In this document: positions 1-30,574 of the stretch, in pieces
Numbering within the stretch: position 1 is the first letter of the stretch
Layout: each line of letters starts with the position of its first letter
Assembly (NCBI GenBank): GCA_017889635.1
Contig: JAGGAC010000026.1
Location: 16,145 to 80,144, forward strand
Origin: Bacillota bacterium
GTDB taxonomy: Bacteria; Bacillota; Negativicutes; Sporomusales; CTSoil-080
Length of the DNA stretch: 64,000 bases
Direction of reading: 5' to 3'
Program-made: the position numbers and the translations under genes
The notes under the pieces: model-generated
Told to the model about the DNA's origin: nothing
The model's input: only the letters and a program-made list of their open reading frames with translations
Database searches by the model: none

Positions 1-50
1 TCTTGATTAGTTTTTCCTTGGTTTGCAAATTGTATACTATTTCCATATGA

Positions 51-94
51 ATGAGGACTGCCCGTAGCTTTGAATAAGCAACTGGCAGTCCTCA
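51..94 (-). terminator. Intrinsic terminator at end of AGE/DJ-1/TPP/GH13 operon
   Basis: Inverted repeat ATGAGGACTGCC...GGCAGTCCTCAT just past the GH13 stop codon. Confidence 0.6.
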
Positions 95-100
95 TTTTAT

Positions 101-2527
101 TTAGCTCACCATTTTAAAGGCCACAACACCATTTGAAGGAATTACCATGTTGATATGCCCGCCGGAAGAAGAAAGCAAGCCGCCCATATTACCAATATCA
201 AAGCCATTATAAACTCCGGAATCACTGTTAAATACCTCCCGCCAATTCCCATCCGGCAGACTATCGCTATATATATCATAGCCGGCTGAAAATGGCGCAT
301 CATTTAAACTGGCACAAACCAGAAATTGCTGCTGACCGTACCAGCGCCTAAAGGCAATAATTCTATTGGCATTATGAACATGAATAACCGCTTTGTTGGG
401 AGAACGAAACGCAGCGTTTTCCTTGCTTAACTTAATAAGATCCTGATAGTACCGGTATAAAAAACGGCCATTTCCTCGTCGTTCTGCTTCAAAATTTTCT
501 TTGTTAAAGCTAAAATCATTATAGCGGTAGTCTTTCTGGAAGCCCACCTCCTCACCCATGAAAAACATCGGTATTCCCGCTGACAACAAAGTAAGACCGC
601 TGGCCACCCGGCACCGATTTTCGGCATAACGACGGGTTTCTCCACGCAGCGGCGCACGATTTACCGCCACCTCAATAGTTCGGCCTGACGAAGGTGAGTT
701 ACCGGCCTCGTCGTGTGATTCATGGTACACCACAGTATGTTCACCAGCATAATTAAAAGCTCCGGCGAAATAGTCCATCGCCAGCGGTCGGTTATCACCT
801 AAGCCGGCTACCTTCATCAGCCTGGCATACTCGCTGCCGCGCTCTCCGTCACCAATAAGATGGTGATAATAATTCGAATACCATACAGCATCAAACCCCA
901 GGCCGCCTTCAGAAGTTGGCTGAGTAACGCCCTGCCAGCCTGAATGATCTTCAGCGATCAGCATTATTTTAGGTTTTATCAGCCGCAAGGTCCGCGAAAA
1001 TTCTCTGAGGAACTTCGTCCCAAAGGCTCGTACATCTTCAAGCGGTCTGCCATCAACATGCAACTTGGGATAAAGATGCATTGAGCCAGTCTGGTCAACC
1101 CGCAGACCGTCAACATGGAATTCCTGCACCAATTGAGCTGCACTGCTGATAAACATTTTTCTGACCATCTCATCCCAAAACCTTGGCGAATATCCGGTAG
1201 ACTCATTATCGACATAACCGCCGTCAGGGCTAGGGTAATTAGACGGCTGCCCCTCATACCAAAAATAGATATTTTTATCATCCCTGGTCGAATCATAATG
1301 CCACTCAGCCCGTTCGCCATGATGGGCATAGTGGTTATAAACTACATCCAGCAATACAACTATTCCTCTTTGATGGCACTCCCGCACAAAATGTTTAAAC
1401 TGATCTCGCCCGCCGCCGGCAAACTCCACCGCGAGGTAATGCGAAGTCGCATATCCCCAGCTGGCCCAGCCTTCAAATTCACTCATCGGCATTAACTCAA
1501 TGGCATTTACCCCAAGCTCAACAAGGTAATCAATCATCTCCATTGCTTCTTTCAGTGATCCAGGAACAGGGCCAAACTGGTCATATTTGTCGTAGCCCAG
1601 CCCGCCAATATGCATTTCATATATAATTAAATCTTCCACTCTAGTTGGAATAGGGCGAGTTTGATTGAATTCATTCTGCCAAAAATCGTCTGAACTTAAC
1701 CATCTTGTCTGAGGGAAGGGTTCGTCAAACAACTCGGTAACTCGTTCCGGATCAATTACCACCGAACAACTCAGCATTCCCATCAAATCATGATAAGTTC
1801 CGTCCCACTGTTCTGTTTTTGGATTTTTACGGCCTTTGCCAATTTGGCATCTCGAATATAGATCGGTTCGATAGACTATGCTGCCATCCTCCTGGGTGAT
1901 TCGAAACATATACGGTGTATGGTCAAACGCCGCAAAGTTTCGGAGTTCAGGTGAGCTTCTAAGATCGCTATACCAAATGCCGGTGCTTTCATCCTTGTTT
2001 AACTTAAACTGACCTGGAGCGCTGATCATACCGGTGCCGTCATCCGCTATATATCCGCTGTCAGAGTTTCCCCTGACCATTTCCACCGCCTGGGCGTTCG
2101 GCGCCCACACCGAAAACATAATTGACGGATCAGCTGCATCAGCTAAATAATACTTGTTAGCCCCCAGCCGTCGACAATTTGTCAGAAAATATTCCTCGTT
2201 TTGTTCCCCTTGCCTCAAAACAAATTTCCGGTGTCGTAAATCCACGTTCTTATCATTTACTTCAGTAGGTATCCCCCATTGGTTAGGAATGTCCGGCCCA
2301 TCAAGCAGCACCCCCCACCTAAAAGTTTTGCCAGCCTCTGAGTCATTCAAGTTTACCCTGGCCGTAAAACTAGGACTGCCGGTATACGAACGCTCTTCAG
2401 TCATCGTTACGGTTGTCCATGTATCAGAGTAGTTTCCCGATTCATCCCAGCTGCCTGTTAATCTCACATTTCTAAAAAGTTCTCCATTTAAACCTACATG
2501 ATAGTTAAAAATAACACCAGCCACCAA
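101..2527 (-). CDS. GH13 alpha-amylase family protein (GlgB/TreZ-like) with extra N-terminal domain
   Basis: GH13 regions DVVYNH, GLRVD, IAEDHS, ESHDE; FSVWAPNA and IYEMHIG motifs; TTG start after GGAGGTG RBS. Confidence 0.85.
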   Translation of the reverse strand: MVAGVIFNYHVGLNGELFRNVRLTGSWDESGNYSDTWTTVTMTEERSYTGSPSFTARVNLNDSEAGKTFRWGVLLDGPDIPNQWGIPTEVNDKNVDLRHRKFVLRQGEQNEEYFLTNCRRLGANKYYLADAADPSIMFSVWAPNAQAVEMVRGNSDSGYIADDGTGMISAPGQFKLNKDESTGIWYSDLRSSPELRNFAAFDHTPYMFRITQEDGSIVYRTDLYSRCQIGKGRKNPKTEQWDGTYHDLMGMLSCSVVIDPERVTELFDEPFPQTRWLSSDDFWQNEFNQTRPIPTRVEDLIIYEMHIGGLGYDKYDQFGPVPGSLKEAMEMIDYLVELGVNAIELMPMSEFEGWASWGYATSHYLAVEFAGGGRDQFKHFVRECHQRGIVVLLDVVYNHYAHHGERAEWHYDSTRDDKNIYFWYEGQPSNYPSPDGGYVDNESTGYSPRFWDEMVRKMFISSAAQLVQEFHVDGLRVDQTGSMHLYPKLHVDGRPLEDVRAFGTKFLREFSRTLRLIKPKIMLIAEDHSGWQGVTQPTSEGGLGFDAVWYSNYYHHLIGDGERGSEYARLMKVAGLGDNRPLAMDYFAGAFNYAGEHTVVYHESHDEAGNSPSSGRTIEVAVNRAPLRGETRRYAENRCRVASGLTLLSAGIPMFFMGEEVGFQKDYRYNDFSFNKENFEAERRGNGRFLYRYYQDLIKLSKENAAFRSPNKAVIHVHNANRIIAFRRWYGQQQFLVCASLNDAPFSAGYDIYSDSLPDGNWREVFNSDSGVYNGFDIGNMGGLLSSSGGHINMVIPSNGVVAFKMVS

Positions 2528-2564
2528 ATCTGCACCTCCGATTAATCTTATTAATCTATCTAAA

Positions 2565-3896
2565 TTAGTTAAAATCCCCCTTAGATTCCTGGATATCAGC
2601 AGCCCTTAGTGCGGCCATAATTTTTTTGCGCCGCGCTTGATCTTCAACGCCCTCCGCGATAGCGCGCTGGGTACGGCCTGAATAATCCTCAATGTCGGTA
2701 TCCGCTCCATTGTCCAGAAACCATCGTATCTGAGCAAGATATCCCTCTAATTGGTCAGGAGCAACGGTAGTAGCGCGTAGTACGGTGTCATGAAGAGCTG
2801 TTAAACCATTAGCTGTAGGCTGCTCATTCAAGGCAGCAGTAAGTGCCTGTGAACTCATGTGCCGCCCAATCTCTTGAAGAATTTTCAAGTGATTGAAGAC
2901 AGCAGCACGAATGATTGCGTGAACTCCCATTGGGTGACGCTCGCGGACAATGGGATCGGCCCCTTTTTCAAGCAGATACTTGACAAGCATAATTCGAAGT
3001 TCCGCCACGTTTTGGTTGGGTGGAATTCCATTATTTCCTGTGACTGCTACTATCAGTGGCGGTTGCTGCAACGGTCCGCCCAGCCGATTCAAATCGATAT
3101 TTTTCGTTTCAACAAAGCTTTTAATTTCTTCAAGTAGATTTTTAAAGTTTCCCGTTTCTTTAGCTGCCCGCGCAAGTACCTCCTCCATCATACCGATAAG
3201 AGTATCGCTTAACTGCTGGTCAGCGGCCTGGTCCGGCAAATATACTGGTGCGATCCGCCCCAAAAGAACCTTATAGTAAGCAGCTTTCGCCGCCTTGGAA
3301 CTGTCATAAGATTTAATCACCTCAAGCATCGGTTCATTTTGAAACTGACCGGCAAGTTCGCTCCCGCCCAAACCTCGCACAGTGGTAGCAGCTGTGTTTG
3401 CGCCGGATTTCAGCGCGAATTCAGCTAAAGCCAAATGTCCGTAGAATACTGCTTGAAGAAACAAAGTATGGCCGTTAAGCTCCCAAATCCGGTCAAGATG
3501 GTCCGGACATTTAGTCAAAAGCAGTTTAGCGGTCTGAACATTTCCTGATTGACCTGCGAAATGAATCGGAAGAGCCCCTGATTTTCGATGCGCGAGATCT
3601 GAACTGGCCTGACGAAAAGGACCATTTATAAGCAAATCAACAGCATAAGCCTGTCCTCTAACCGCTGCCGCAAGAAGCGGCGTCCAGCCGTCCTCATCAT
3701 ATTGGTCAGGATTGCCACCATAATCTAGCCAAGCGCCGAGTCCTCTTATATCACCATCTCTAGCCATTCCAACTATCCGACCTATATCCGGTTCACCGGC
3801 ACATTGATCACCACATTGGATATTCAACGCATAATCTTTTGTATAAGAGTTTCTGTTTCGCCGGCATCCAGCAGCATCATAAATTTGAATATCCAC
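2565..3896 (-). CDS. Ankyrin repeat protein
   Basis: Repeats GWTPLLAAA, GALPIHFAG, GHTLFLQAV, QPPLIVAV, GLTALHDTV; GTG start after GGAGG RBS. Confidence 0.8.
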   Translation of the reverse strand: MDIQIYDAAGCRRNRNSYTKDYALNIQCGDQCAGEPDIGRIVGMARDGDIRGLGAWLDYGGNPDQYDEDGWTPLLAAAVRGQAYAVDLLINGPFRQASSDLAHRKSGALPIHFAGQSGNVQTAKLLLTKCPDHLDRIWELNGHTLFLQAVFYGHLALAEFALKSGANTAATTVRGLGGSELAGQFQNEPMLEVIKSYDSSKAAKAAYYKVLLGRIAPVYLPDQAADQQLSDTLIGMMEEVLARAAKETGNFKNLLEEIKSFVETKNIDLNRLGGPLQQPPLIVAVTGNNGIPPNQNVAELRIMLVKYLLEKGADPIVRERHPMGVHAIIRAAVFNHLKILQEIGRHMSSQALTAALNEQPTANGLTALHDTVLRATTVAPDQLEGYLAQIRWFLDNGADTDIEDYSGRTQRAIAEGVEDQARRKKIMAALRAADIQESKGDFN

Positions 3897-3937
3897 TTCT
3901 CTTACCTCCGTATAGGGAATTGAGGTTTAAAACGACA

Positions 3938-5611
3938 CTAGCTTTTAGTTTGATTGACTAATAGATCAATTAAAAACGGTCCTTGATGATTAAACATTTT
4001 TTCGATAGCGGGTCTTATGTCAGCAGGTTTTTCAACTCGGACGCCAGTAACACCCAATGCCTCAGACAGTTGTACATAATTTATCTCAGGAGTTTTGATA
4101 TAAAAGGATTCCGGGAAATTACGCCCCGTGATTTGGTGCTCCTGCCAATACTGGCGAAGATTATTTTGCAGTATTCTATACCCCTGGTTGTTACATACAA
4201 CAAACTTTGCTCCGATGTTGTAATGAGCAGCCGTCCACAAAGCCTGGATTGTATACATGCTGCCCCCATCGCCGCCAAAGCCAATCACCGTAGCTTCAGG
4301 CGCGGCAATTTTAAGACCTATTGCCCCCGGAATGCCGACTCCCAAGGAAGTCCATCTGGTTTGAAAAAAGCATCCAGGCTTTGTGCTAAGAATGTAACGG
4401 TTCAATTCGACGGAACAAGTTTCGGCTTCATCAAAAATAATCGTATTCGGCGGCATATGTTCAGCAAATTCCCGCATAAACCGACCAGGTATCACTGGAA
4501 TAGAATCCCAAGACTCAATATCCGCTTTTATTTCCAAATCAAGCTGGGATCTTTTTTCGTCAGCCAACATTTTATTACGCTCTAGAACAGTTTCTTTTTG
4601 CTCTGAAGTTTGAATACGTTCAACAATGCTGTTGAGTTTCTTAAACGTTAACTTAGGATCACTTACAATGCCAATATCCACTGGGAAGTTCTTGGCTATT
4701 TCATAAGCGTTCAAGTCAATATGAATAAGTGGTTTACCATGAGGGAAAATATCCGCCAACAATGGGAATACCTCCGGGAATAAATAAGTGCCGCTGACAA
4801 AAATCACATCCGCCTTTGCCATAGCTGCTTTTGAATATTTGCCTGACATATGATTCAATAGCCCGCGATAATTTGGATTCGCTCCGCTAATATTCATTTC
4901 AGAGCCTTCCGCAGCCCAAACTTCTGCCGCAACAAGCTTTACTAACTGAGCCAATTCGTCTTGAGCTCCAGAATAGGCAATTCCATCGCCAATAATAAAA
5001 ACTGGATGTCTGGCATCAATAAGCATTTTAGCAACCCTTTCCAGTTGAGAATCATCCGGCGCTGTACGGGTATCAAGTATTGTCGAAGGAACAATCTCTT
5101 CTTCGCTTTGCATGTCCAGTATATCCATTGGCAAACAGACAAAAACCGGTCCCATTGGCGGAGTCGAAGCAACTTTTACAGCCCTTCGAATTACTCTGAG
5201 CAGCGAAGAGGAATCCACTACCCGTGTCGCCCATTTCGTCACCGGCTTAGCCATAGCCACAATATCGGCTGCCATATGTGCTTCCATTGCGTCGTATTTT
5301 ATGCCAGCTTCACCAGCAAGTACAATAAGTGGGGCATGTCCCCGCATCGCCTGGTACAACATGCCAATGCCGTTTCCCAGACCAACCCCGGAATGAAGCT
5401 GAATAACAGCCGGTTTTTTTGTTTTTCTGGCAAAACCGTCGGCAATTGCCACAGCTGTAGCTTCCTCCAGAGCCAGGATATATTGGAACTCTGGATAGTA
5501 GTCCCCTACCGCATCAAGCAGCCCCTGCTCCACCGATCCCGGATTGCCGAACATATATTTTATTCCATCAGCCAGTAATTGCTCTATGACCGCATGTCTT
5601 CCGGTTCTAAT
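3938..5611 (-). CDS. Thiamine pyrophosphate-binding enzyme (benzoylformate decarboxylase/acetolactate synthase-like); probable ATT start at 5611 (first ATG at 5554)
   Basis: MFGNPGS, GPVFVCLP and TPP motif GDGGSMY...NN; family-type N-terminal segment TGRHAVIEQLLADGIKY is in frame upstream of the ATG. Confidence 0.85.
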   Translation of the reverse strand: MRTGRHAVIEQLLADGIKYMFGNPGSVEQGLLDAVGDYYPEFQYILALEEATAVAIADGFARKTKKPAVIQLHSGVGLGNGIGMLYQAMRGHAPLIVLAGEAGIKYDAMEAHMAADIVAMAKPVTKWATRVVDSSSLLRVIRRAVKVASTPPMGPVFVCLPMDILDMQSEEEIVPSTILDTRTAPDDSQLERVAKMLIDARHPVFIIGDGIAYSGAQDELAQLVKLVAAEVWAAEGSEMNISGANPNYRGLLNHMSGKYSKAAMAKADVIFVSGTYLFPEVFPLLADIFPHGKPLIHIDLNAYEIAKNFPVDIGIVSDPKLTFKKLNSIVERIQTSEQKETVLERNKMLADEKRSQLDLEIKADIESWDSIPVIPGRFMREFAEHMPPNTIIFDEAETCSVELNRYILSTKPGCFFQTRWTSLGVGIPGAIGLKIAAPEATVIGFGGDGGSMYTIQALWTAAHYNIGAKFVVCNNQGYRILQNNLRQYWQEHQITGRNFPESFYIKTPEINYVQLSEALGVTGVRVEKPADIRPAIEKMFNHQGPFLIDLLVNQTKS

Positions 5612-5627
5612 AACCCTTCATCCTTTC

Positions 5628-6377
5628 CTACCAGCCATATTTCCGTAGTCCATTTTCAAGGACTTCGACCAGTTTTTGTCCGCAAAGATACGAACACGCC
5701 GTAGAACGGGCCGAAATAAATGGATAATCTACAATAACCGAAGTTCTTTGCCCGACATTACCATGGTACTGACCGTTTGGCCCAACGGCGTCTCGCAAGA
5801 TGTATTCCAGCGGATAAGGCGGCGGCCCGATGACAAAATCAGTCCCTAAAAACAAATTAAAGTCCCGAGCAAAAGCCAGGCAGGTAACCCCATAGCATTC
5901 AACGGCAATAGGCTTGTCCTTTTTGTAAAAGGCTAATATCATATCATGTACCCGTCGGTTATTTACCATATCGACAATTGGTCCGCTTCCGCCTACTATA
6001 AGCAGCGCATCATATCTATCCAAGCCGCGTTCTGCTTTCTCCAGAAGACTATAATAGCTTTCCATCTCTTTTAAATAGTTAGGCGAACTAAGGTAAGGGC
6101 GTTCGGGAAACATTTTTTCGATGTTCTCAGGATTATTTAACCTCCCGGACGAGTCAATGTCCCTGGTCTTTTTCGCCATTTCCTCCGACACCACCGTCCG
6201 TCCCAGCGGCGGATCAACGAAACTTGCGTCCATGCTTGGCGGCAGAGCATGAGGAATTTTCCCCTTGGGCGTGGCAAATACCGTGGTATAGCCTGCTTGA
6301 TCAAACGTTTCCAGCGGACCGACGAGTTCTTCGCCCCAGTAGCCATACTCTGATAAAACCGCAAGAATTTTTTTCAT
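5628..6377 (-). CDS. Type 1 glutamine amidotransferase-like (DJ-1/PfpI) protein, probably with an internal in-frame deletion
   Basis: SEYGYWGEE, GGSGP and nucleophile-elbow ECYG; ATG at 6377 with GGAGGGAG RBS. Confidence 0.8.
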   Translation of the reverse strand: MKKILAVLSEYGYWGEELVGPLETFDQAGYTTVFATPKGKIPHALPPSMDASFVDPPLGRTVVSEEMAKKTRDIDSSGRLNNPENIEKMFPERPYLSSPNYLKEMESYYSLLEKAERGLDRYDALLIVGGSGPIVDMVNNRRVHDMILAFYKKDKPIAVECYGVTCLAFARDFNLFLGTDFVIGPPPYPLEYILRDAVGPNGQYHGNVGQRTSVIVDYPFISARSTACSYLCGQKLVEVLENGLRKYGW

Positions 6378-6408
6378 AAGCTCCCTCCACACTGAACATA
6401 ATTGTCAA

Positions 6409-7044
6409 TCATAGAGATTCCCCGTTTTCAACCTTCAATATTTGTTCAACAATTTTGTCAACGAAAAGCGCTGTCTCATGATAGGTACGACCGGTCACCA
6501 AATCTTTATCGACTACTACACCAGAAGGATCATCACTAAACACGCCGCCGGCATTTATTATATCTGCAAGAACTACGTTATTGCAGATAACCTTTCGGTT
6601 CCGCAAAAGCTCCGGATTAGGCGTGATAATCCACAGGCCATGGCATAACGCTCCTTTTATAATCCGTTGGCTTTTCATTGCTCGGGCGTAAAAATCTACC
6701 GCTGGAGCGGTCTTTACCATATCAGCTGTGATTGGCTTCTTGTCAGGCGGTTCAAAATGTCTTAACCGTACACTAGTATAGTTCGCTGACATAATTACAG
6801 CCGCATAGTCCTCAAGTTTAACCTTATCGAAGTCGATACTCACATCTAAAGTTTCCGGTGTTTTTCCTGCTTCACTCACCGTGCTGATAAAAGTCATTTT
6901 GGCGTTCCCCCATAATCTGGACATAAAGTCTACAACCATCCCATACTGATTAAATTTTTCACGATATACTGCAATTTCTTCTGGGATATACTGACTTTCC
7001 ACAAGAATTGCAACCTTTTTATTTTGTAATTTATCGTTATTCAC
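6409..7044 (-). CDS. DJ-1/PfpI family protein
   Basis: KKVAILVE, LCHG elbow and VVVDKDLVTGR motifs. Confidence 0.85.
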   Translation of the reverse strand: MNNDKLQNKKVAILVESQYIPEEIAVYREKFNQYGMVVDFMSRLWGNAKMTFISTVSEAGKTPETLDVSIDFDKVKLEDYAAVIMSANYTSVRLRHFEPPDKKPITADMVKTAPAVDFYARAMKSQRIIKGALCHGLWIITPNPELLRNRKVICNNVVLADIINAGGVFSDDPSGVVVDKDLVTGRTYHETALFVDKIVEQILKVENGESL

Positions 7045-7069
7045 TTCGCCACCACTTCCCTCACTCTAG

Positions 7070-9097
7070 TCATTTACTGCAGCGCGGGCAAAATTGAACA
7101 TTAATTGTTTTGCCAAGATCTTCTTTTCTAAGCTGAATCTGAAAATTATCTTTATCAAAATTCGTTCGCGGAACACCGTTTATAGTTATACTTACAATCT
7201 CAACATCATTCGGTTTGAAAAAATCAGGCAGCACATTAATTGACAGTAAAGAGCTATTTACCGATGGTATGAAATACATGGAAAAGGTTTTTTCGCCTGG
7301 CGGACGATTTCCAACATAAGAACTTAAATAAATGTGCGCTAAATAGTTAAGTTCAAAGGCATGGTAGCCAGCCTTAGCATGGCTGCCCTTATTGGCGTAC
7401 TCGCCTTGGATTATCGGAACGCCGTTGTCATTGACCCGGAAATAAATTCCCCTATGCTCCCGGTCCAGAAAATATACATTCCAAAACGCCATCATTTCTC
7501 TGGCCAATTTCAGGTATCTGCCATCCTTAGCATCAGCGCCATGCAGTATCAGGTATGCCAGAATCGCCTGTTCCTGCTGCCAAAAATCTTTAGTATTGCT
7601 CCAGGCAAACTCTAGCGGCATACCATTGCCAGGTTCCCGCTCCACAGTATCAAATAAGCCGCCATGAATAACGTCCACGCCATGTGTCGCGATCTTATCC
7701 CCGATATTTTGGGCAAGCTCAATATAACGCTTGGCCTGAGATGCGTATTTTCCGGCTTTATCTTTATCACCGGCTTCAAGGTATTCCCTTTCCCGGCACA
7801 ATAAATAATAAGCGCACCGTGTTAAGTTCCAGGCAATTTTAAGATTATGCCCAACAACCGCCCGGTTCTGCTGCCAGGAATAGCTATGATCAGGTTTCCA
7901 GTCATCCATAAACCGTTCATTGACATAAGGATTTCCACCGTCAGGAAACTTTTCTACAATAAATCCCAGCGTCATCTCCAACATGTCCCGGCATTTATCT
8001 CTTATGCGAATCAAATTGCCGCTGTTATCGCCAATCGGCAACGGATCAAGAGCCGAAAGAAGGTTGACAAGATAGGCCGGAATGTGATCGCCGATCGAAT
8101 TCCAGTTCTTGCGCAGTTTATTTTTACCTAAAGCCTCAGAATCAGGGCGCATTGTCACATAGTCGATATGGGAAAAGTAGCCGCCATTCCCTGGAAAGCC
8201 TTTAACCTTGGCCTTTTCATCATCTAAGTAGAAATCATTGAAGGCATTAATGGTACGCTCGATATCTTTTAAAACTTCCCACTCCTGGGTAATACGATAA
8301 TACTGTGCCAAACCTGCCAGGGCATAAATTTGTTCGTACAAAGGAATAGAGTTTAAGTCATCAGGATTTTGCGACGGAATAACCAGTTTGGAACTGGTTT
8401 TAAGTTTTCGCCACCCATGAGCCCAAATACATTGCGTTCCGTCATGGGTAAGACTCCGAAACGTCTGACGCTGATACTCAACACCAGCCTTAGCCGCAAG
8501 GTAATATCTGCGGCTGCCGGTCAATAGATAAGCTGACGACAGTCCGTAAATCAAACGCGAAAGCGTGGCGCATTCCTGAATATTATCATCTGTTTCTCCG
8601 CCAAGAATATTAAGATTAGTGCGATATAATTCAGCAAAATCATCGGTAGCATAGTTGCGTCTAGTACCAAAGATATCATCCAGCCATTCGTCAGCCAACA
8701 ACCTAATCTGGTTAAGCCACCAATGGGTTTCTTCAAACGCCAAAATATCCGGGACTGAGTTTAAAATATGTATAATACTGGCATCAAAACTTGACGCTGA
8801 TTCTACCTCCTGATAAATCCCCTCAACCGCTAGCAGCCAACCGATACTAATATTCTTTTTTATTTTTTTGCAGATATCCGAACAAGAATCATTAACTGGC
8901 TCAGGCAGTCGGTTTCGCTCCAATGTGTCAAGGTTCTCTACTACCTTAAACTCTGTATTAGCGCGCACTCTGACTTTAAAGCTGTCACCGCTGCGACACT
9001 GAAGCGTAAACGAGTTACCATCAGCATCAATCGCGGTTACGTCGCCCATGATGCTGACTTGCTGAATAAACTGTTTCATTACTGCCATTTCCTCCAT
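7070..9097 (-). CDS. AGE family (N-acylglucosamine 2-epimerase-like) epimerase/isomerase with N-terminal extension
   Basis: SRLIYG, KNWNSIGDH, GHNLKIAW, KDFWQQEQA, KGSH..GYH motifs of the (alpha/alpha)6 AGE superfamily; start may be ATG at 9088 or 9079. Confidence 0.8.
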   Translation of the reverse strand: MEEMAVMKQFIQQVSIMGDVTAIDADGNSFTLQCRSGDSFKVRVRANTEFKVVENLDTLERNRLPEPVNDSCSDICKKIKKNISIGWLLAVEGIYQEVESASSFDASIIHILNSVPDILAFEETHWWLNQIRLLADEWLDDIFGTRRNYATDDFAELYRTNLNILGGETDDNIQECATLSRLIYGLSSAYLLTGSRRYYLAAKAGVEYQRQTFRSLTHDGTQCIWAHGWRKLKTSSKLVIPSQNPDDLNSIPLYEQIYALAGLAQYYRITQEWEVLKDIERTINAFNDFYLDDEKAKVKGFPGNGGYFSHIDYVTMRPDSEALGKNKLRKNWNSIGDHIPAYLVNLLSALDPLPIGDNSGNLIRIRDKCRDMLEMTLGFIVEKFPDGGNPYVNERFMDDWKPDHSYSWQQNRAVVGHNLKIAWNLTRCAYYLLCREREYLEAGDKDKAGKYASQAKRYIELAQNIGDKIATHGVDVIHGGLFDTVEREPGNGMPLEFAWSNTKDFWQQEQAILAYLILHGADAKDGRYLKLAREMMAFWNVYFLDREHRGIYFRVNDNGVPIIQGEYANKGSHAKAGYHAFELNYLAHIYLSSYVGNRPPGEKTFSMYFIPSVNSSLLSINVLPDFFKPNDVEIVSITINGVPRTNFDKDNFQIQLRKEDLGKTINVQFCPRCSK

Positions 9098-9213
9098 TCA
9101 AATTGCGCTCTTCTCACCACAAAATTTCATTCACTTCATACAACACGTTACTTATTATTTCTCAATATACTAGTTACTATGTCCCGCCTACCGCTAAGCA
9201 GCTTGCAAAACAA

Positions 9214-9258
9214 AAACCTGCTCACCAGGCTTAACTTCAGCCAAAATGAGCAGGTTGA
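9214..9258 (-). terminator. Intrinsic terminator after DJ-1/PfpI gene
   Basis: AACCTGCTCA...TGAGCAGGTT stem followed by T-run on minus strand. Confidence 0.55.
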
Positions 9259-9333
9259 TTACTTATGGTATTTATTCTTCAAACCATTATCGAGCAGTAT
9301 CAGCCATGAGGCCAATATAAATGCTTTGTTATC

Positions 9334-9930
9334 TCAAACTATAACATCATACTCCATCCGTTTTGCTGTCGCAACGGCCACTTCACTGCCAAGCAATTGT
9401 TTTATAATATAGAGCGACACATTAATCCCGGCAGAAATGCCTGCTGCAGTAATTATTGAGCCTTCGTCAACATATTTACAATTTTTAACGACTTTAACGG
9501 CAGGAAATTCACGTTCAAGACGGTCAATATCAAGCCAATGTGTGGTGGCATGTTTGCCATCAATGAGACCTGCCTTTGCCAACAAAAATGCGCCTGTACA
9601 CACTGAAACAATAAGCTTTGTGTCAGCCTTACGGCTGCGAATCCACTGGATTACGTGTTCGTTATGTATCTCAATTTCTTCTGCTCCATAGCCGCCGGGA
9701 ATAATAAGAATATCAAAATCAGGCGAATTATTAAAACTATAATGCGGCTGGACCAATAACCCGTTTCGCGCCTTTACTACTGTTCCATACTGTGAAATTG
9801 TCTGAACTAAAAATGGTTTGTCTTGTCTATCAGGAAAAGAAGTCAGGGAAAAAACTTCAAACGGTCCTGCGAAATCTAATACTTCCACCTCATCAAATAA
9901 AAGTATCCCCACTCGCCAAAACCTATCCAT
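9334..9930 (-). CDS. DJ-1/PfpI family protein (isonitrile hydratase/AraC-GATase1-like)
   Basis: EVLDFAGPFEVF, IPGGYG, SVCTGA, ATTHW, TAAGISAG motifs; RBS-supported ATG at 9930. Confidence 0.85.
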   Translation of the reverse strand: MDRFWRVGILLFDEVEVLDFAGPFEVFSLTSFPDRQDKPFLVQTISQYGTVVKARNGLLVQPHYSFNNSPDFDILIIPGGYGAEEIEIHNEHVIQWIRSRKADTKLIVSVCTGAFLLAKAGLIDGKHATTHWLDIDRLEREFPAVKVVKNCKYVDEGSIITAAGISAGINVSLYIIKQLLGSEVAVATAKRMEYDVIV

Positions 9931-9968
9931 CTCATCCTCCACTTACTATTCGTCAGTTAAATAGTCTC

Positions 9969-11072
9969 TCATTCGCCGCTTGAGACCATTTGCCGCTTGA
10001 AAATACAGATCGTACCGCCAGGATTGTAACACTTATTACAGAAAACGCATTTTGCGGGGTCCAATTCTCCACGCTGCCAGCGGTTAATAAGATCAGTTTC
10101 ACGAATCAGCGAGCGGCTAAGCGCAATATATTCAATAGCGGTTTGATTAATAATCTCTGTCAGTTGATTAAATTCTCGGTTACCGCCCACCAAAATAACC
10201 GGAACCGTTAATTCTTGTGCCAATTCATCTGCATACGGTCTAAAATACGACTCTTGACCCCGCCTTATTAATCTTGACGGTCCCTTGTTCATCCGTGATG
10301 AGCGACTGCCGCCGCTTACCTCAATAGCGCTTATTCCAAGTTCCGCTAAGGTTTTACAAACATATTTGCATTCTTCAAAAGTCATACCTTGATCCATAAA
10401 ATCTTCACAATTAATTTTAATCAGGATTGGATATTCCGGACCTACCTTTTCCCTGACTGCCTTATATGTTTCCACAACCATTCTAGCCCTGTTTTCAATA
10501 CTGCCGCCATAACAGTCTGTTCGCTGATTATAATAAGGATTTAGAAATTTGCTTAACAAGTAGCCATGGGCGCTATGCAGCTGAACACCATCGAAACCAG
10601 CCTTTTTAGCCCGAAGTGCAGCATCAGCGAACGCAGTTTGTACAAACAAAATCTCCTCAGTTGTCATTTCTTGGGGAGTAGTATTGTAACCCGTATCAAG
10701 TACTTTGCTTGGCCCCCACATTACCTTGCCGCCGGCTAACTCAGGTGAAGCTTGGGAACCAAGACAGGCAAGCTGCATAATTATATTGCCGCCATAACTA
10801 TGAACGACATCCACAAGCTTCTTATATTCGTCAATATAGGAATCATCATAAAGAGCCATTTGTCCCTGATAAAGCTGTTCTAACTTAGTTACAGCCGTAA
10901 GTCCGGTGATAATTGTCCCCACTCCTCCTCTCGCCAAATTTTCATAAACCTGAACTAACTCCTGAGTCATGCGCCCGTCTTCACCAGCTACGCCATCATA
11001 AGTAGCCGAGCGAAAAAATCTGTTTTTTAGCTTCATACCAGCAAATTGTGTTTGGTCAAATAACGATTTCAT
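9969..11072 (-). CDS. NADH:flavin oxidoreductase (Old Yellow Enzyme family)
   Basis: KNRFFRSAT, AGFDGVQLHSAHGYLL, RTDxYGGS; C-terminal CxxCxxC. Confidence 0.9.
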   Translation of the reverse strand: MKSLFDQTQFAGMKLKNRFFRSATYDGVAGEDGRMTQELVQVYENLARGGVGTIITGLTAVTKLEQLYQGQMALYDDSYIDEYKKLVDVVHSYGGNIIMQLACLGSQASPELAGGKVMWGPSKVLDTGYNTTPQEMTTEEILFVQTAFADAALRAKKAGFDGVQLHSAHGYLLSKFLNPYYNQRTDCYGGSIENRARMVVETYKAVREKVGPEYPILIKINCEDFMDQGMTFEECKYVCKTLAELGISAIEVSGGSRSSRMNKGPSRLIRRGQESYFRPYADELAQELTVPVILVGGNREFNQLTEIINQTAIEYIALSRSLIRETDLINRWQRGELDPAKCVFCNKCYNPGGTICIFKRQMVSSGE

Positions 11073-11138
11073 TGCTTCACCCTTTACAAATTTTTATATT
11101 TCAGCCTGCAAAAATATGCTATCATGTTGAAAAAACGT

Positions 11139-11903
11139 TTATTTATTAGTTTTTTTATCCGCTTCGATCAATAGACGAACTGCTTCCACAGCAACTTCAA
11201 TTGCGGCGCTTGGATCATGAATATGGTCATTAGGCAAGCCTGCCTTTTCCCGTTCCTGATTCCACACAACGGATAGTACGCACCCCGCTCTGGCCCTAAG
11301 AACACTAGCCACAATATAGAGCGCTGCTGACTCCATTTCCGAAGCCAAACATCCCGCTTTAATCCAGGCGTCCCATTTATAGTTTAGCTCGGCGCCAACT
11401 GGCATACGATTAGGATTGTGCTGTCCGTAGAATGAATCTTTGCACTGAACAACGCCGGTATGAAAACTCTTGCCCAAATTAGCAGCAGCATTCACCAGGG
11501 CAGTGGTAACACTAAAATCAGCAACAGCCGGATATTCGATTGGAGCATACTCTTTCGAGGTCCCCTCCATACGTACTGCAGCAGTCGCCACCACCACATC
11601 ACCGCTCAGCACCTGTTCCTGCATACCGCCGCAGGTACCAATTCTGATAAAGGTTCGAACCCCGGTCATATATAGTTCCTCAACAGCAATCGCCGCCGAC
11701 GGGCCGCCAATACCGGTAGAAGTAACCAACACCCGCTCTCCATTTAACAAACCTGCATATGTAGTGTATTCCCTGTTGGTTTTTACAGGTGATGGATTTT
11801 CTAACAACCGGGCGATTTTTTCCACCCGGCCTGGATCACCGGGAAGTATGGCATATTTTGCCCCCTGCTCCAGAGTCAAACCAATATGATAAAGTTCTTT
11901 CAT
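11139..11903 (-). CDS. udp: Uridine phosphorylase
   Basis: [32 protein letters not shown] motifs. Confidence 0.9.
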
Positions 11904-11969
11904 CCAAATACCTCCCTGTATTCACCCCAATTTAGCACTTTCTTTAGCGCCGCATTTTATTGGTAGTAT

Positions 11970-12620
11970 TTACGCGCCCTGAATAATAGCTATACTTGCA
12001 CTGGTGCCTAATCTGTCGGCACCGGCTTCCAGCATTGCCACTGCGCGCGCATAATCGCTGATTCCTCCGGAAGCCTTTATTTTTATTCGGTCCCCGACGC
12101 ATTCTTTCAGCAGCCTAATATCCTCCAGCGTAGCTCCGCTGCCGGAAAATCCAGTGGATGTTTTGACAAAATCAGCACCAGCCGCAATTGCAGTCAGACA
12201 AGCCTGCCGTTTTTCGTCATCATTCAGGAGGCAGGTTTCCAGGATTACTTTGACAAGCGCCTTCCCTTTTACAGCCTGCACCACGCTGGCGATATCCTGC
12301 TCAACACACTCCCAGTTGCCGGACTTAAGTGCGCCAACATTAATCACCATATCCACTTCGGCCGCACCATTCGCTATCGCCTCAACTGCTTCAGCACACT
12401 TAATATTAGTGGTATTCGCCCCAAGCGGAAATCCGATCACGGTGCATACCAGTACCCCGGTGCCTTCTAAACAAGCGGTAGCAGACTGAACCTGACATGG
12501 ATTAACGCAGACCGACTTGAACTTATGTTCCTTGGCCTCATTGCAAAGAGCTATAATTTGCTCTTTAGTCGCTTGTGGTTTAAGCAACGTATGGTCAATT
12601 TTGAGAGCAATTTGCCGCAT
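11970..12620 (-). CDS. deoC: Deoxyribose-phosphate aldolase
   Basis: [30 protein letters not shown]; true start at ATG 12620. Confidence 0.95.
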
Positions 12621-12753
12621 ATACTTCACCTTCCTGCTTGTTATCAATAGTATGGCACAGTATGAAAACCTAATCTCATTAATATACACAAAAAAATTAT
12701 ACCAATAGTTAACCATTACTTGTTTATTTTCATCAGTCTTAATCCAAGAATAT

Positions 12754-13587
12754 TCACCTGCTGTTAGACGTAATAATGTCAGCACGACTTATAAACGGAT
12801 GATGATACCTTAATCGTCCTGCGGTCCGCCCAAACTCAATGCTCTCTTCTGGACAGAAATGTAAACATGCCAAACATTCCTGGCAATGCGACTTCCATTC
12901 CGGTCGACCATTGACTAAGCGAATATTATCAACAGGGCAAATCTTTTCACAAATTCCACATGATGTACAACCAGCAGAACTTGAAAATTTGCGGTCATTT
13001 TTAGGCAGCAGACTTTTTCGCCAAAAGCTGTTAATTGCCGAACAAGGCAGCCAAAAATATTCCGTTTCGATTGTCCGTATTTTTATCCGGATTATTTCTG
13101 CCAGTGCCTTAAGTCTATTATCGGCGTTTGTTAATATTATGTCCTGCTTATGCTGCGGTGGAAGGTTGGAAAGAGGAATATAGTTTGAAATCATCTCAAC
13201 ATGAAATCCGGCAGTTAATTTCTTTCCTTTATTGACTAATAATTTATTCAACTGATTAAACGCACTGCTAAAATAGTGGTTTCCACAGGTTACAATAGCA
13301 AATACGTACCCCACTGATTTCATGTCCAGTTTACTAATAAATTCGGCTACTATTGGCGGCATACCAAAATAATGCATAGGAAATACAAAGCCGATACTCT
13401 CAGCATCAGTAGTTACAGTTTCTTCTTTATTAGCCGAAGCTATCGAAATCAGGGGGCAATTAGGCAAGCTTTGGCTAATTGTCTTGGCAGCATATAATGA
13501 GTTTCCGGTTGCGGAAAAGTAGTAGATAATTTGTTTTGCAGCAGAATCCTTTAATTTTATTCCTTGCTCATTCATCAGCTGACACAT
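12754..13587 (-). CDS. EFR1 family flavodoxin-ferredoxin protein
   Basis: YYFSATGNS flavodoxin motif plus two CxxCxxCxxxCP 4Fe-4S motifs. Confidence 0.85.
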
Positions 13588-13738
13588 TCCTTTCTTAACT
13601 CAAAACAAAATAAATTATTGTCAAGAGGCTTACCAGCACTCTAATGAACCTTTTTTACAACTAACTATACCTTATGGTTATTTCATATATTTGTCAATGC
13701 TATAGCCTTTAGATCTATCTCAGTCAACCAATATTAGT

Positions 13739-13790
13739 TAAAAACCCGTTTAAAACTTATCGTTTTAAACGGGTTTTTACTGCATTTTTT
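13739..13790 (-). terminator. Intrinsic terminator after GerMN gene
   Basis: AAAAACCCGTTTAAAAC / GTTTTAAACGGGTTTTT inverted repeat. Confidence 0.65.
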
Positions 13791-14387
13791 CTAGCGCTTA
13801 ATCAGATTCTCTGACCGAGCAAGGGGTTGACTAGTATCAAGATGTCCTGTAATGGTATCGATTTTTTTGCCATTAACCATAATCTGTACTTTTTCAACCT
13901 CTGGAAATTCTGTCAGAGTATCAACTATTGCTGCAACAAGCATCATCTCAGCAGTTGATCCGCCATGATTACTTTTTATTAAATCGTCACTAAAATCGGC
14001 GTAGGCAATGTGATTTTTTACTTTTACGCCTAGCACCTTAGTGCCAGCAGGTACTACCGATACTAGCTGTGAACTCTGCGGACCTGCAACCAAATTCTCA
14101 AGGGCTGTTTGAAGCGGATGCTCGGTTTTGGGTACAGATTGAGTCTCTGGAACTAAGTACATAGCATCTTCAGTTGCATGATAGGTTGTAACTTGCATCA
14201 TTTCCTGAGCTTTTGGGGAATTTTTCGGAGCTGGAGCAGGCAATTCCTGCTGATTTTGCTTCACATTGACGTCAACATTCGGCGCTGCTGTATCATTACC
14301 GTCGCTTTTGGGAGGTGGTGCACCACAACCAGCTGCCAACCCAAGCATCACAACAAGTACAGCACAGATAACATATCTCGGAAACAT
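13791..14387 (-). CDS. GerMN domain lipoprotein
   Basis: Lipobox LAAGC; GGSTAE, IVDTLTEFPEVEKVQIMVNG GerMN pattern. Confidence 0.85.
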   Translation of the reverse strand: MFPRYVICAVLVVMLGLAAGCGAPPPKSDGNDTAAPNVDVNVKQNQQELPAPAPKNSPKAQEMMQVTTYHATEDAMYLVPETQSVPKTEHPLQTALENLVAGPQSSQLVSVVPAGTKVLGVKVKNHIAYADFSDDLIKSNHGGSTAEMMLVAAIVDTLTEFPEVEKVQIMVNGKKIDTITGHLDTSQPLARSENLIKR

Positions 14388-15481
14388 TAATTTATACCTC
14401 CTAGTTTAGCGGCTTGAACAAAGAAATTGTTTACTCCGTTGACAATGCCTTGAGCAAGCTTTTGCTGGAATTGAGGCGTATTAAGCAGTTTTTCCTCACT
14501 AGGGTTTGACAGAAAAGCCAATTCGACAAGTACAGCGGGCATAGCAGTATTTTTGAGCACATAGAAGTTAGCCGGGTAAATGCCCCGATCACTTAGACCA
14601 CTCGCTTTGACCATGCCATCTTGGAGATTCTGAGCCAGCAGTTTGCCATAGATTGTATTTTTATAGAAATACGATCCTATACCGCCGACTTGGGAATTTT
14701 GAAACGAATTGGCATGGATAGATAAAAATATATCAGCATTATTTCTATTGCCAACCTCGGCTCGGGCGCTTAATTCTTCTGTGGCGCTGTCATTCGGTGC
14801 GTAAACATCACGATCATTTACCCGAGTCATATATACTTTTGCTCCAGCTTTCTCTAGGAGTGCCTTTACTTCCATCGCTACAGCTAAAGTCACAGCTTTT
14901 TCCTGAACACCATTCGGCCCAATAGCCCCGCTATCAGTGCCGCCATGCCCTGGATCGACAGCAATCACCTTGCCTTTCAAGCTGGGAGTAAAGTTGAAGT
15001 TTGGAACTGACAGGGGCTTGTCAATATCAATAACAACCCGGAAAGGTCGATTTGTCGCTGTGTCCTCCGGCAATGTATATACCTTACACTCAGTATCATC
15101 AATTGCTTCCGGCAAATTAATTACTAGCCGACAGTCAGACTTGTCCAACGACGAAATACTTAGATCACTGGCAATTTTTCCGTCAAGAACAATATTGTTT
15201 GCAACATTTCCTAACTCAGCCCCTTTAATATCGACAATAAGCTGGGGGGTTGGCGAACTACTTAACGACTTGGAAACCTGTACCGGGCCAGTAACTTCAA
15301 CTACTAACCGCAGACTCTTTTCCCCGGTAACTCCGTCAGTACGAACAGCATGCCTAACACTAGATAAACGAGTTAATGAGTCTTGCTTAGAAGCTCCGGC
15401 ATCAACCGGAACAGCTAATGCAAGCTGCGATATGATTATAATCTGTAACATCAGCACTGATAGCATCTTTTTCAGCGGCAT
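14387..15481 (-). CDS. N-acetylmuramoyl-L-alanine amidase (AMIN + Amidase_3)
   Basis: Signal peptide; DPGHGG, SIHAN, VLVELAFLSN motifs. Confidence 0.9.
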   Translation of the reverse strand: MPLKKMLSVLMLQIIIISQLALAVPVDAGASKQDSLTRLSSVRHAVRTDGVTGEKSLRLVVEVTGPVQVSKSLSSSPTPQLIVDIKGAELGNVANNIVLDGKIASDLSISSLDKSDCRLVINLPEAIDDTECKVYTLPEDTATNRPFRVVIDIDKPLSVPNFNFTPSLKGKVIAVDPGHGGTDSGAIGPNGVQEKAVTLAVAMEVKALLEKAGAKVYMTRVNDRDVYAPNDSATEELSARAEVGNRNNADIFLSIHANSFQNSQVGGIGSYFYKNTIYGKLLAQNLQDGMVKASGLSDRGIYPANFYVLKNTAMPAVLVELAFLSNPSEEKLLNTPQFQQKLAQGIVNGVNNFFVQAAKLGGIN

Positions 15482-15555
15482 AAGCAGTTCCTCCTAAAAA
15501 TTTTTGCAACAATTAAATAATAATTGAGGGCTGATTTTTTTTGTTATTAAAAGTC

Positions 15556-15600
15556 ATTATAGCATCCTATCATTACAATTTTGTTACAATTTTTTTTACA
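15556..15600 (-). promoter_or_regulatory. WalR-like direct repeat TGTAAC-N5-TGTAAT, 10 bp upstream of TATAAT (amidase operon)
   Basis: Half-sites at 15583-15588 and 15572-15577; -10 at 15556-15561; third half-site TGTAAA at 15595-15600. Confidence 0.7.
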
Positions 15601-15635
15601 GGCATTGCCATATATGTATAAATAAATTAATATAG

Positions 15636-15657
15636 TAAATAGTATTATTACTATTTA
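15636..15657. promoter_or_regulatory. Zur-box-like palindrome
   Basis: TAAATAGTA-TTAT-TACTATTTA directly before the RBS of the Fur-family gene. Confidence 0.6.
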
Positions 15658-15673
15658 GGATGGTGTGTAAGTA

Positions 15674-16096
15674 ATGGAAAAATTATTGAATGCGCTCCGG
15701 GCTAAGGGTTACAAAATGACACCACAGCGCCGAGCCGTCGCAGCCGCTTTAATCAAGTGCGGAAAATTTGCCACAGCCCAGCAATTGCTGTTACAAGTCA
15801 AGCAAACAACACCCGATGTCAGTCTAGATACAATCTATCGCAACCTCAGTCTTTTTGTAAAATTGGGCTTGGTAACCGAAATCCATCTTCCTGGCCGGGA
15901 AGGTAATATATTTGAAGTAACTACTAATCAACACCATCATCATTTAGTTTGTATTAACTGTGGTAAAACCGAGTGTTTGGATTACTGCCCAATCAGCAGC
16001 CACGATCTCGAGAAAGCTCGGGAACGGGACTTTCAAATTATATCGCATGCTTTAGAATTCTATGGTTACTGCCGCACATGCCGGACGGCAGGATAA
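15674..16096 (+). CDS. Fur family transcriptional regulator (Zur-like)
   Basis: TPQRRAV, SLDTIYRNL, HHHHLVCINCG, C-terminal CRTC; next to a Zn-binding lipoprotein. Confidence 0.85.
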   Translation: MEKLLNALRAKGYKMTPQRRAVAAALIKCGKFATAQQLLLQVKQTTPDVSLDTIYRNLSLFVKLGLVTEIHLPGREGNIFEVTTNQHHHHLVCINCGKTECLDYCPISSHDLEKARERDFQIISHALEFYGYCRTCRTAG

Positions 16097-16129
16097 CCAA
16101 CTAACTAACAACCAAGGAGAGATATTATT

Positions 16130-17074: not shown

Positions 17075-17076
17075 TA

Positions 17077-17136
17077 GTATAATAAAAAGAGGTAAAGCTG
17101 GTTCAGTACAAATCAGCTCTACCTCTTTTTATTATA
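17077..17136. terminator. Bidirectional terminator between convergent genes
   Basis: TATAATAAAAAGAGGTA...TACCTCTTTTTATTATA inverted repeat. Confidence 0.65.
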
Positions 17137-17153
17137 AAAGAAATTTCAAAGTC

Positions 17154-30324: not shown

Positions 30325-30574
30325 ATACTCCTCCAGTGCGTACTGTAAAACTACACCGAACACAGTGCACATCTTCTTTTACGAGCTTTTTCTACTTAAT
30401 ATGTCAGCATTACGTATTATTCGACACCAGTTTACACTATTACCCAATTTCAGTCAATGTATTTTTGTTAATTCGCACGCATTTCTTCGACATTTATCAT
30501 TAATATTTCAAACCATTTTCAAATATTAATGATCGATATAAAATTATAAATTATTAAGGGGAAGGTGTCGTTTT

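Follow-up and report, generated by a model that had tools for sequence, protein, structure and literature searches.

The icfG cluster of Synechocystis PCC 6803 is the closest described system to the locus reported here. According to two reports on it, slr1852-slr1862 constitute one operon, whose products include Slr1855, which is annotated as an N-acetylglucosamine 2-epimerase, as well as STAS proteins, an isoamylase (Slr1857), a phosphatase (IcfG), and a kinase (Slr1861) (PMC8670252, PMC12329169). The same reports implicate the cluster in carbon and glucose regulation and describe its response to carbon and salt conditions; the studies presented there are limited to its regulators, and the enzymes are left unstudied (PMC12329169, PMC8670252). 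We analyzed a 64,000-nucleotide stretch of the genome of a Bacillota bacterium of the Sporomusales (assembly GCA_017889635.1, contig JAGGAC010000026.1, positions 16,145 to 80,144), hereafter called the window. At its beginning, six minus-strand genes encode, in the order of transcription, a protein resembling N-acylglucosamine 2-epimerase (AGE), two DJ-1/PfpI proteins (DJ-1a and DJ-1b), a thiamine diphosphate (ThDP) enzyme, an ankyrin-repeat protein, and a GH13 enzyme.

Our comparison indicated that these genes are likely to form a functional, glucan-linked enzyme module. There is also a reasonable, if by no means secure, case that they are a compact version, obtained by horizontal transfer, of a cytoplasmic module that is widespread and branches off the metabolism of alpha-glucan (glycogen or maltodextrin). 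The form found in the window is set apart by its ThDP enzyme and ankyrin protein, by having no partner switch, and by its Firmicute host, and the icfG cluster is its only published relative. Our literature search returned no relevant paper on this gene combination, supplements being outside the search, and only transcriptome tables on slr1852-1855. A first-pass annotation of the window knew of no characterized pathway that combines these genes; the literature agreed with this as to the pathway, although a related cluster, icfG, has been published.

A conserved module of AGE-like, DJ-1 and GH13 genes

Relatives of the AGE-like protein made up 4,284 of 7,999 scored candidates. The 120 relatives that were listed come from many phyla and are 52-91% identical to it over the full length, and, the host's own lineage excepted, the nearest of those listed are at most 69% identical. 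Species-representative genomes were then scanned from this seed, which gave 175 relatives, and the best 80 loci were kept. As greedy open reading frame (ORF) maps of GC-rich loci contained spurious antisense ORFs, gene content was counted by tblastn with the window proteins instead, on the same strand, in the 51 loci that had at least 8 kb on both sides. DJ-1a was found in 47 of these loci, GH13 in 46, DJ-1b in 37, the ThDP enzyme in 28, GMC in 22, VOC in 20, and the ankyrin protein in four. In 71 of the 76 loci with room for it, DJ-1a begins no more than 400 bases from the AGE stop. Both DJ-1 genes were present in 62 loci, where they were fused in one frame (36 loci), separate but adjacent (22), or apart (4); the 36 fusions suggest that these paralogues work only as a pair. 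Furthermore, two proteins of 878 aa (P0081 and P0119) are fusions of AGE and DJ-1.

We defined the module as a long AGE-like gene that DJ-1a follows directly, with DJ-1b and GH13 on the same strand within 10 kb. All four genes occur in the window in the canonical order. Across these neighborhoods, gene content shows a conserved core composed of the predicted AGE-like barrel, the DJ-1 pair, and the GH13 enzyme, to which a putative ThDP lyase or HpcH aldolase and the ankyrin protein are frequent add-ons. The first-pass annotation had mentioned a similar cluster in cyanobacteria and other phyla, and the genes indeed co-occur across many phyla. Its view of the six genes as one pathway was not sustained: they are not a fixed unit, and the exact six-gene set in this form was found in no other locus among 160.

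The module varied among lineages. In cyanobacteria and Competibacteraceae, about 4 kb separate the ThDP gene from the GH13 gene, and this DNA encodes three or four SnoaL-like proteins, a 4-OT tautomerase, a GMC oxidoreductase, and a VOC protein; the GMC proteins of these longer forms are closest to alcohol, choline, and pyridoxine oxidases. Actinobacterial loci are compact and consist of AGE, fused DJ-1, ThDP, and GH13 genes. Loci of a second type, obtained with the ankyrin protein as the seed, contain, in this order, DJ-1b, ankyrin, HpcH aldolase, DJ-1a, a GlgX-type GH13 enzyme (CBM48 plus isoamylase C-terminus), and an AGE-STAS fusion; some of them also encode a bestrophin-like protein or a HAMP-PP2C phosphatase. 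The AGE-like protein of the window is 35-37% identical to that of these type-2 loci. The accessory genes of the longer forms (VOC/glyoxalase-type, 4-OT tautomerase, SnoaL, GMC alcohol oxidase, and HpcH aldolase) all belong to carbonyl or enol chemistry, in keeping with the carbonyl or dicarbonyl chemistry that had been suggested for the cluster.

Other layouts were also observed. In five Nostocaceae loci (L033, L034, L043, L044, and L045, at about 12000-18000), five to eight small, unrelated genes separate AGE and DJ-1a from a second DJ-1a-like gene, after which GH13 follows; this third layout lacks DJ-1b and the ThDP enzyme. Three further loci (L132 4637-9615, L086 10894-13200, and L015 11468-15334) hold fusions of DJ-1 with metallo-beta-lactamase (536 aa), of the AGE-like protein with STAS (768 aa), of ankyrin with DJ-1 (811 aa, with a weak prenyltransferase-like N-terminus), and of SnoaL, ankyrin, and HpcH aldolase (1288 aa).

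The ankyrin protein was followed separately in metagenome contigs, where 249 relatives were obtained and the best 80 loci kept. Adjacency was counted in the 41 loci that had a match of at least 45% identity and at least 1 kb upstream. A DJ-1b homologue lies directly upstream of the ankyrin gene in 23 of them; among the 18 exceptions are loci in which DJ-1b lies downstream and others with a VOC-ankyrin arrangement. Eight loci had at least 6 kb on both sides; the AGE-like protein, DJ-1a, and DJ-1b were each found in six of these and GH13 in four. The family, about 400 aa long, comprised 402 relatives among 8,000 scored candidates, and the 119 others listed are 51-66% identical to the window protein over about 88% of its length. 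The window member has a 43-residue N-terminal extension. Dozens of polar residues are invariant in the family alignment, and the structure model (predicted local distance difference test score, pLDDT, 89) is a plain solenoid with residues 1-32 disordered, for which the fold search returned only generic ankyrin and DARPin structures. Relatives are fused to VOC, SnoaL, or ABM domains, to SnoaL plus HpcH aldolase (L015), or to DJ-1 (L132). By these comparisons, the protein is assigned to a dedicated conserved family and is a recurrent partner of the module; the fusions and the gene order suggest that it may serve as a scaffold or regulator. A complex prediction for DJ-1b and ankyrin (the pair from L093) scored 0.00, which bears neither way.

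Two candidate assignments of ankyrin proteins were rejected. The similarity to AnkH of the type IV secretion system (T4SS) was a generic repeat similarity, with an NCBIfam score of 24.5 against 600 bits. An apparent ankyrin-GH13 fusion in L004 (a 1477-aa ORF) was an upstream extension of the ORF in GC-rich DNA, with the ankyrin match in another reading frame.

Assignment of the six proteins

Pfam and NCBIfam agreed with the domain assignments of the first-pass annotation for all six genes. The GH13 enzyme matched the Pfam catalytic domain at 77.6 bits and carries Alpha-amylase_C. Its residues D478, E526, and D606 do not vary among the 40 homologues aligned; the first two line up with the catalytic motifs of GlgB and TreZ, and region IV with D606 was identified by eye. 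The alignments place the enzyme in the GH13 alpha-amylase family, with a predicted catalytic triad that is complete and comprises the Asp nucleophile, the Glu acid/base, and the Asp transition-state stabilizer of conserved regions II, III, and IV. Its scores lay below the NCBIfam equivalog cut-offs of GlgB (160.4 vs 741 bits) and TreZ (157.4 vs 538.8 bits) and below that of the GlgX type (89.7 vs 640.9 bits). TreZ was its second-best solved relative (E 7e-27), and its N-terminal 290 residues resemble CBM48 and GlgB_N modules in language-model features, which we treat as a lead only. Elsewhere in the host genome there is a canonical glgC/glgD/glgA locus, accompanied by further GH13 genes, and a second glgA; glycogen should therefore be available, and the GH13 gene of the window would be an extra copy. 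The link to alpha-glucans drawn in the earlier annotation is a strong one, given a GH13 gene in 46 of the 51 loci, a triad kept in every homologue aligned, and the CBM48-like N-terminus.

The AGE-like protein scored 27.6 bits with the Pfam family GlcNAc_2-epim (PF07221), against a gathering cut-off of 23.4, over residues 380-560 only; a six-frame search with the same family gave 23.1 bits (26.1 with neighbors in frame). None of the NCBIfam models matched it, and its sequence similarity to AGE-superfamily enzymes was marginal (phmmer E 2e-3; profile search E 5e-6). The structure model (pLDDT 77, predicted template-modeling score 0.83) contains an (alpha/alpha)6 barrel, and the 675-aa protein adds an N-terminal beta domain at about residues 9-115 and a C-terminal beta sandwich at about 600-675. 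In Foldseek, the model best matched glucose 2-epimerase, AGE, cellobiose 2-epimerase (CE), and YihS, with E values from 5e-12 to 2e-8. The top 37 Protein Data Bank (PDB) matches were all AGE, CE, glucose 2-epimerase, or YihS, mannose isomerase was also among the matches, and the template-modeling scores on the target were 0.6-0.7. All 30 sequences compared share R181, H338, H417, and H579. Arg181, His338, and His417 presumably fall in AGE-like motifs, and Y578-H579 aligns with the C-terminal motif of CE. An invariant Lys420 stands three residues past His417. The Pfam threshold and the modeled fold together assign the protein to the AGE superfamily.

DJ-1a and DJ-1b are predicted members of the DJ-1/PfpI family by their Pfam domains (DJ-1/PfpI in DJ-1a; ThiJ_like plus DJ-1 in DJ-1b) and their nucleophile-elbow cysteine. 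In DJ-1a, Cys134-His135 is invariant in 40 of 40 homologues, and the H155 of the family is Asn in the window protein, as in four of the 40. The nucleophile cysteine of the ECYG motif of DJ-1b is likewise invariant in its homologues. The closest solved relatives are YhbO and PfpI for DJ-1a and Arabidopsis DJ-1D for DJ-1b, and the two proteins scored 57.1 and 38.1 bits, below the cut-off of 139.05 for the PfpI/YhbO deglycase subfamily TIGR01382.

The DJ-1b gene carries a 72-base in-frame deletion at about 5852/5853, by which 24 conserved residues are gone. A database protein of 273 aa (P0242), which derives from other assemblies with contigs of at most 194 kb, is identical to DJ-1b in 249 of 249 aligned residues and retains the 24-residue segment. 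This segment is kept in 20 of 20 aligned DJ-1b homologues, and the 119 other database DJ-1b proteins listed are all at least 263 aa long. Since an intact and otherwise identical DJ-1b is present in other assemblies, the deletion would be very recent or an artefact; it appears to be either a polymorphism private to this assembly or strain or an assembly artefact, and the pathway may be impaired in this strain.

The ThDP enzyme has three domains, and its best NCBIfam model was benzoylformate decarboxylase (BFDC), with which it aligns over the full length (E 6e-60); the GDG...NN motif is present. Relative to BFDC, represented in this alignment by an engineered variant from the PDB, the enzyme retains the Ser, the Glu, the Glu that activates the cofactor, and the first His. 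The enzyme deviates at 20 of the 163 positions conserved in at least 90% of its homologues, and only three of 40 homologues deviate as much. Its frame is conserved up to 5611, which is 57 bases upstream of the first ATG, GTG, or TTG codon (ATG 5554). Between the in-frame TGA at 5620-5618 and this ATG, the sole plausible initiator is the ATT at 5611-5609, 16 bases past the DJ-1b stop. With the N-terminal extension included, the BFDC match scores 206 bits instead of 199, and the alignment begins at BFDC residue 9. The gene would have either a non-canonical start or an N-terminally truncated product; an identical 538-aa gene call is recorded in other assemblies.

Predicted operon boundaries, host and neighboring genes

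The six genes stand between two hairpins and are predicted from this arrangement to form a compact operon (Table 1). The ORFs, their ribosome-binding sites, and the bounding hairpins described by the first-pass annotation were all recovered at their positions, and the hairpins fold; of its gene starts, those of the AGE-like, DJ-1b, and ThDP genes were adjusted (probably to 9079 and to 6377, and to the frame reaching 5611). A GGAGG-type Shine-Dalgarno site precedes each gene, and the spacers with the revised starts are 16-41 bases long. The likely AGE start at ATG 9079 has GGAGG ahead of it and agrees with the homologue consensus. The upstream hairpin, at about 9215-9256, folds at -25.3 kcal/mol (z -3.95) and precedes a T run. 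For the downstream hairpin, at about 50-96, the values are -29.3 kcal/mol and z -7.5, and it has no U run on the operon strand. Stable folds were found in none of the intergenic spacers of the cluster. Terminator-like sites were not enriched across positions 1-14500, with 13 found against 14.1 expected from shuffles. A search for sequencing runs that contain the operon listed none. On the opposite strand, the downstream hairpin does have a T run, and the next gene, gerAA, shares the direction of the operon.

Table 1. Positions of the six genes and the two bounding hairpins in the window
Feature	Position	Strand	Basis and remarks
AGE-superfamily protein	7070..9097	minus	ORF list, Pfam, structure model; likely start ATG 9079
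DJ-1a, PfpI/YhbO-type DJ-1	6409..7044	minus	Pfam/NCBIfam; Cys134-His135
DJ-1b, ThiJ_like/DJ-1D-like	5628..6392	minus	Pfam; Cys-Tyr motif ECYG; likely start ATG 6377
ThDP enzyme, benzoylformate decarboxylase-like	3938..5611	minus	NCBIfam; ORF by canonical start is 3938-5554
Ankyrin-repeat protein	2565..3896	minus	Pfam; GTG start behind GGAGGT
GH13 alpha-glucan enzyme, cytoplasmic, GlgB/TreZ-like, CBM48-like N-terminal region	101..2527	minus	Pfam/NCBIfam
Intrinsic terminator of the upstream DJ-1 (FtrA-N-like) gene	9214..9258	minus	Operon 5' boundary
Strong hairpin past the GH13 gene	50..96	minus	Putative operon 3' boundary

Upstream of the operon, at 9334-11072 on the minus strand, a third DJ-1 protein (202 aa, similar to the N-terminus of FtrA/GbdR) is encoded with an Old Yellow Enzyme, after which come uridine phosphorylase and deoC. 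The upstream DJ-1 and Old Yellow Enzyme genes were considered as additional members and rejected, because the terminator intervenes and tblastn matched them in none of the 80 AGE-seeded loci.

Neither 40 relatives of the host from its family, order, or class nor 400 genomes drawn from across the phylum yielded the AGE-like gene. With no match in these 440 phylum genomes, transfer is the simplest reading, and the cluster was probably acquired horizontally. A GMC oxidase homologue was not found in the host genome with the one query used, which does not imply its absence. The neighbors of the cluster include a CwlD-like amidase, TolC-RND efflux genes, an indolepyruvate ferredoxin oxidoreductase, and an EFR1 ferredoxin, with a gerA operon just past the 3' hairpin; by their predicted products, these genes indicate a spore-forming, outer-membrane-bearing, anaerobic Firmicute. 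In that gerA operon, beyond the start of the window (L163 5878-6937), the GerAB-type permease is split into overlapping ORFs of 195 and 191 aa, which is either a frameshift or a sequencing error. Farther into the window, an 872-aa protein encoded on the minus strand at 27754-30372 has a NosP-like nitric-oxide-sensor region and an AdeR-like activator C-terminus.

Proposed function and comparison with known systems

A possible order of chemistry can be sketched from these assignments, although we regard it as tentative and more apt to fail than to hold: GH13 would act first, followed by the AGE-like protein, the DJ-1 pair, and the lyase, with the ankyrin protein holding the enzymes. The GH13 enzyme, docked on the glucan through its CBM48-like N-terminus, would cut or remodel glycogen or malto-oligosaccharide and thereby expose or release a reducing sugar. 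The AGE-like barrel would shift the C2 proton of the exposed reducing end or of the released sugar through an ene-diol, yielding the 2-epimer or the ketose. The DJ-1 pair, with its cysteine nucleophiles, would act on a carbonyl or 2-oxoaldehyde-type intermediate in the manner of a glyoxalase III or deglycase, and the ThDP enzyme would form or break a carbon-carbon bond adjacent to a carbonyl. The ankyrin protein would be the fixed subunit that keeps DJ-1b and other small carbonyl-handling enzymes in a complex. At a similarly speculative level, the module might constitute an undescribed non-phosphorolytic form of glycogen catabolism, in which a glucan-derived sugar isomerized by the AGE-like enzyme passes to a DJ-1 heterodimer. 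The heterodimer would be a genuine metabolic enzyme working on a sugar 2-oxoaldehyde or ene-diol, its product would be split by the ThDP lyase or the HpcH aldolase, and the ankyrin protein would recruit interchangeable VOC, SnoaL, aldolase, or DJ-1 proteins. If so, this would be the first case of a bacterial ankyrin family dedicated to serving as a subunit in a complex of metabolic enzymes.

Several observations weigh against the reading of the cluster as a transferred, glucan-linked enzyme module. The composition varies among loci, with ThDP in 28 of 51 and ankyrin in only 4, and the six genes therefore do not make up a single fixed pathway. AGE and CE enzymes carry Glu where the AGE-like protein has Lys420, so its reaction may not be classical epimerization. 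DJ-1b is without the conserved Val-Thr-Gly-His strand that comes after its cysteine, including a nearly invariant His. The ThDP enzyme reached no NCBIfam equivalog cut-off (303.7 vs 493 bits for NF005485, the BFDC model), a Val aligns with the second catalytic His of BFDC, His281, and its conserved N-terminal helix has no canonical start codon. Furthermore, a consensus scan from the upstream terminator to the AGE start revealed no sigma-70-type promoter. Base composition carried no signal of recent transfer either: the GC content of the cluster is 45.3% against 42.4% for the genome, and 14% of the 9-kb genome windows are at least as GC-rich.

The same genes could instead serve protection or repair, with the DJ-1 pair, joined elsewhere by VOC and metallo-beta-lactamase (MBL) partners, detoxifying sugar dicarbonyls or deglycating proteins during glycogen turnover, while the AGE-like and GH13 proteins only supply or recognize the sugar. 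The resemblance of DJ-1a to YhbO and PfpI and of DJ-1b to Arabidopsis DJ-1D fits this idea, as do the VOC/glyoxalase-type proteins and DJ-1-MBL fusions of the longer forms and the reported response of the icfG cluster to carbon and salt conditions (PMC12329169, PMC8670252). However, a detoxification system has no need of a dedicated GH13 enzyme, of a ThDP lyase or an aldolase, or of as many as three or four SnoaL proteins, and the adjacency of AGE and DJ-1a in 71 of 76 loci, together with the AGE-DJ-1 fusions, suggests that a substrate is handed over; we consider a protective role unlikely. A biosynthetic cluster that turns a glucan-derived sugar into a signaling or antimicrobial molecule, for example a pyranone or enolone as in the fungal anhydrofructose route, seems quite improbable. 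SnoaL cyclase-like proteins, 4-OT tautomerase, GMC alcohol oxidase, and a BFDC-like carboligase would be typical tailoring enzymes for such a product, but the window has no SnoaL, tautomerase, GMC, or VOC genes, the query used found no GMC homologue in the genome, and neither the cluster nor the loci inspected contained an exporter or resistance gene. The known alpha-1,4-glucan lyases, moreover, belong to GH31 and not to GH13.

We give about as little credence to the view that the cluster is a decaying relic of transfer without a working pathway in this strain. In its favor are an AGE-like gene that was found in none of the 440 other phylum genomes searched, the private 72-base deletion in DJ-1b, the lack of a canonical start in the ThDP gene, and the deviation of its product at 20 of 163 conserved positions, matched by only 3 of 40 homologues. 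Nevertheless, the six frames are open and all the Shine-Dalgarno sites are kept, the AGE-like, DJ-1a, GH13, and ankyrin proteins deviate within the range of their homologues, and the otherwise identical intact DJ-1b found elsewhere makes the deletion very recent or an artefact. ATT, furthermore, can initiate translation in bacteria.

We continue to favor a functional, glucan-linked module, with the reservations stated. The more than 4,000 AGE-like relatives are at least 50% identical and extend over Cyanobacteria, Proteobacteria, Actinobacteria, Myxococcota, Planctomycetota, Chloroflexota, Verrucomicrobiota, and others, and a module of this spread without an assigned reaction is one of the larger conserved blind spots beside glycogen metabolism. 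Solving it would give functions to thousands of proteins annotated as 'AGE family', 'type 1 glutamine amidotransferase domain', or 'ankyrin repeat', a defined metabolic substrate to DJ-1 proteins, and a role to the enzymes of the icfG cluster. The window contributes a minimal version of six genes from a spore-forming Firmicute and shows the ankyrin protein to be a regular component of the system.

Each part of the module resembles a known system and departs from it. The AGE-like protein shares its barrel fold with the AGE-superfamily enzymes (N-acylglucosamine 2-epimerase, CE, glucose 2-epimerase, mannose isomerase, and YihS), but it is 675 aa long compared with about 400 aa and has the additional N- and C-terminal beta domains. 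The DJ-1 proteins have the fold and the nucleophile cysteine in common with the glyoxalase III and deglycase proteins Hsp31, YhbO, PfpI, and Arabidopsis DJ-1D, whereas they score far under the NCBIfam cut-offs and occur as paired paralogues tied to a sugar isomerase-like enzyme. BFDC is the best-scoring family and structure for the ThDP enzyme, which stands in a context of carbohydrate metabolism, in contrast to the mandelate degradation in which BFDC is found. The module as a whole can be likened to the TreY/TreZ route, where the reducing end of an alpha-glucan is modified by an isomerizing enzyme before cleavage by a GH13 enzyme that belongs to the TreZ/GlgB branch. However, the window has an AGE-type barrel and no GH13 TreY, and TreY/TreZ has no DJ-1, ThDP, or ankyrin partners.

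The icfG cluster, as its reports describe it, places the AGE-family Slr1855 beside the glycogen-active, GlgX-type GH13 enzyme Slr1857, similar to the pairing of AGE and GH13 in the window. The type-2 loci share its layout, with a GlgX-type GH13 enzyme, an AGE-STAS fusion, and PP2C, and have DJ-1a, DJ-1b, and a member of the ankyrin family in addition. Pfam and NCBIfam searches of the six genes and their neighbors found no STAS, kinase, or PP2C domains; the window has no genes for these, its GH13 enzyme is GlgB/TreZ-like rather than GlgX-like, and a BFDC-like ThDP enzyme is added. With the homology to Slr1855 and Slr1857 judged by annotation and layout, the window is a sister form of the icfG-type cluster, related to it but not a member.

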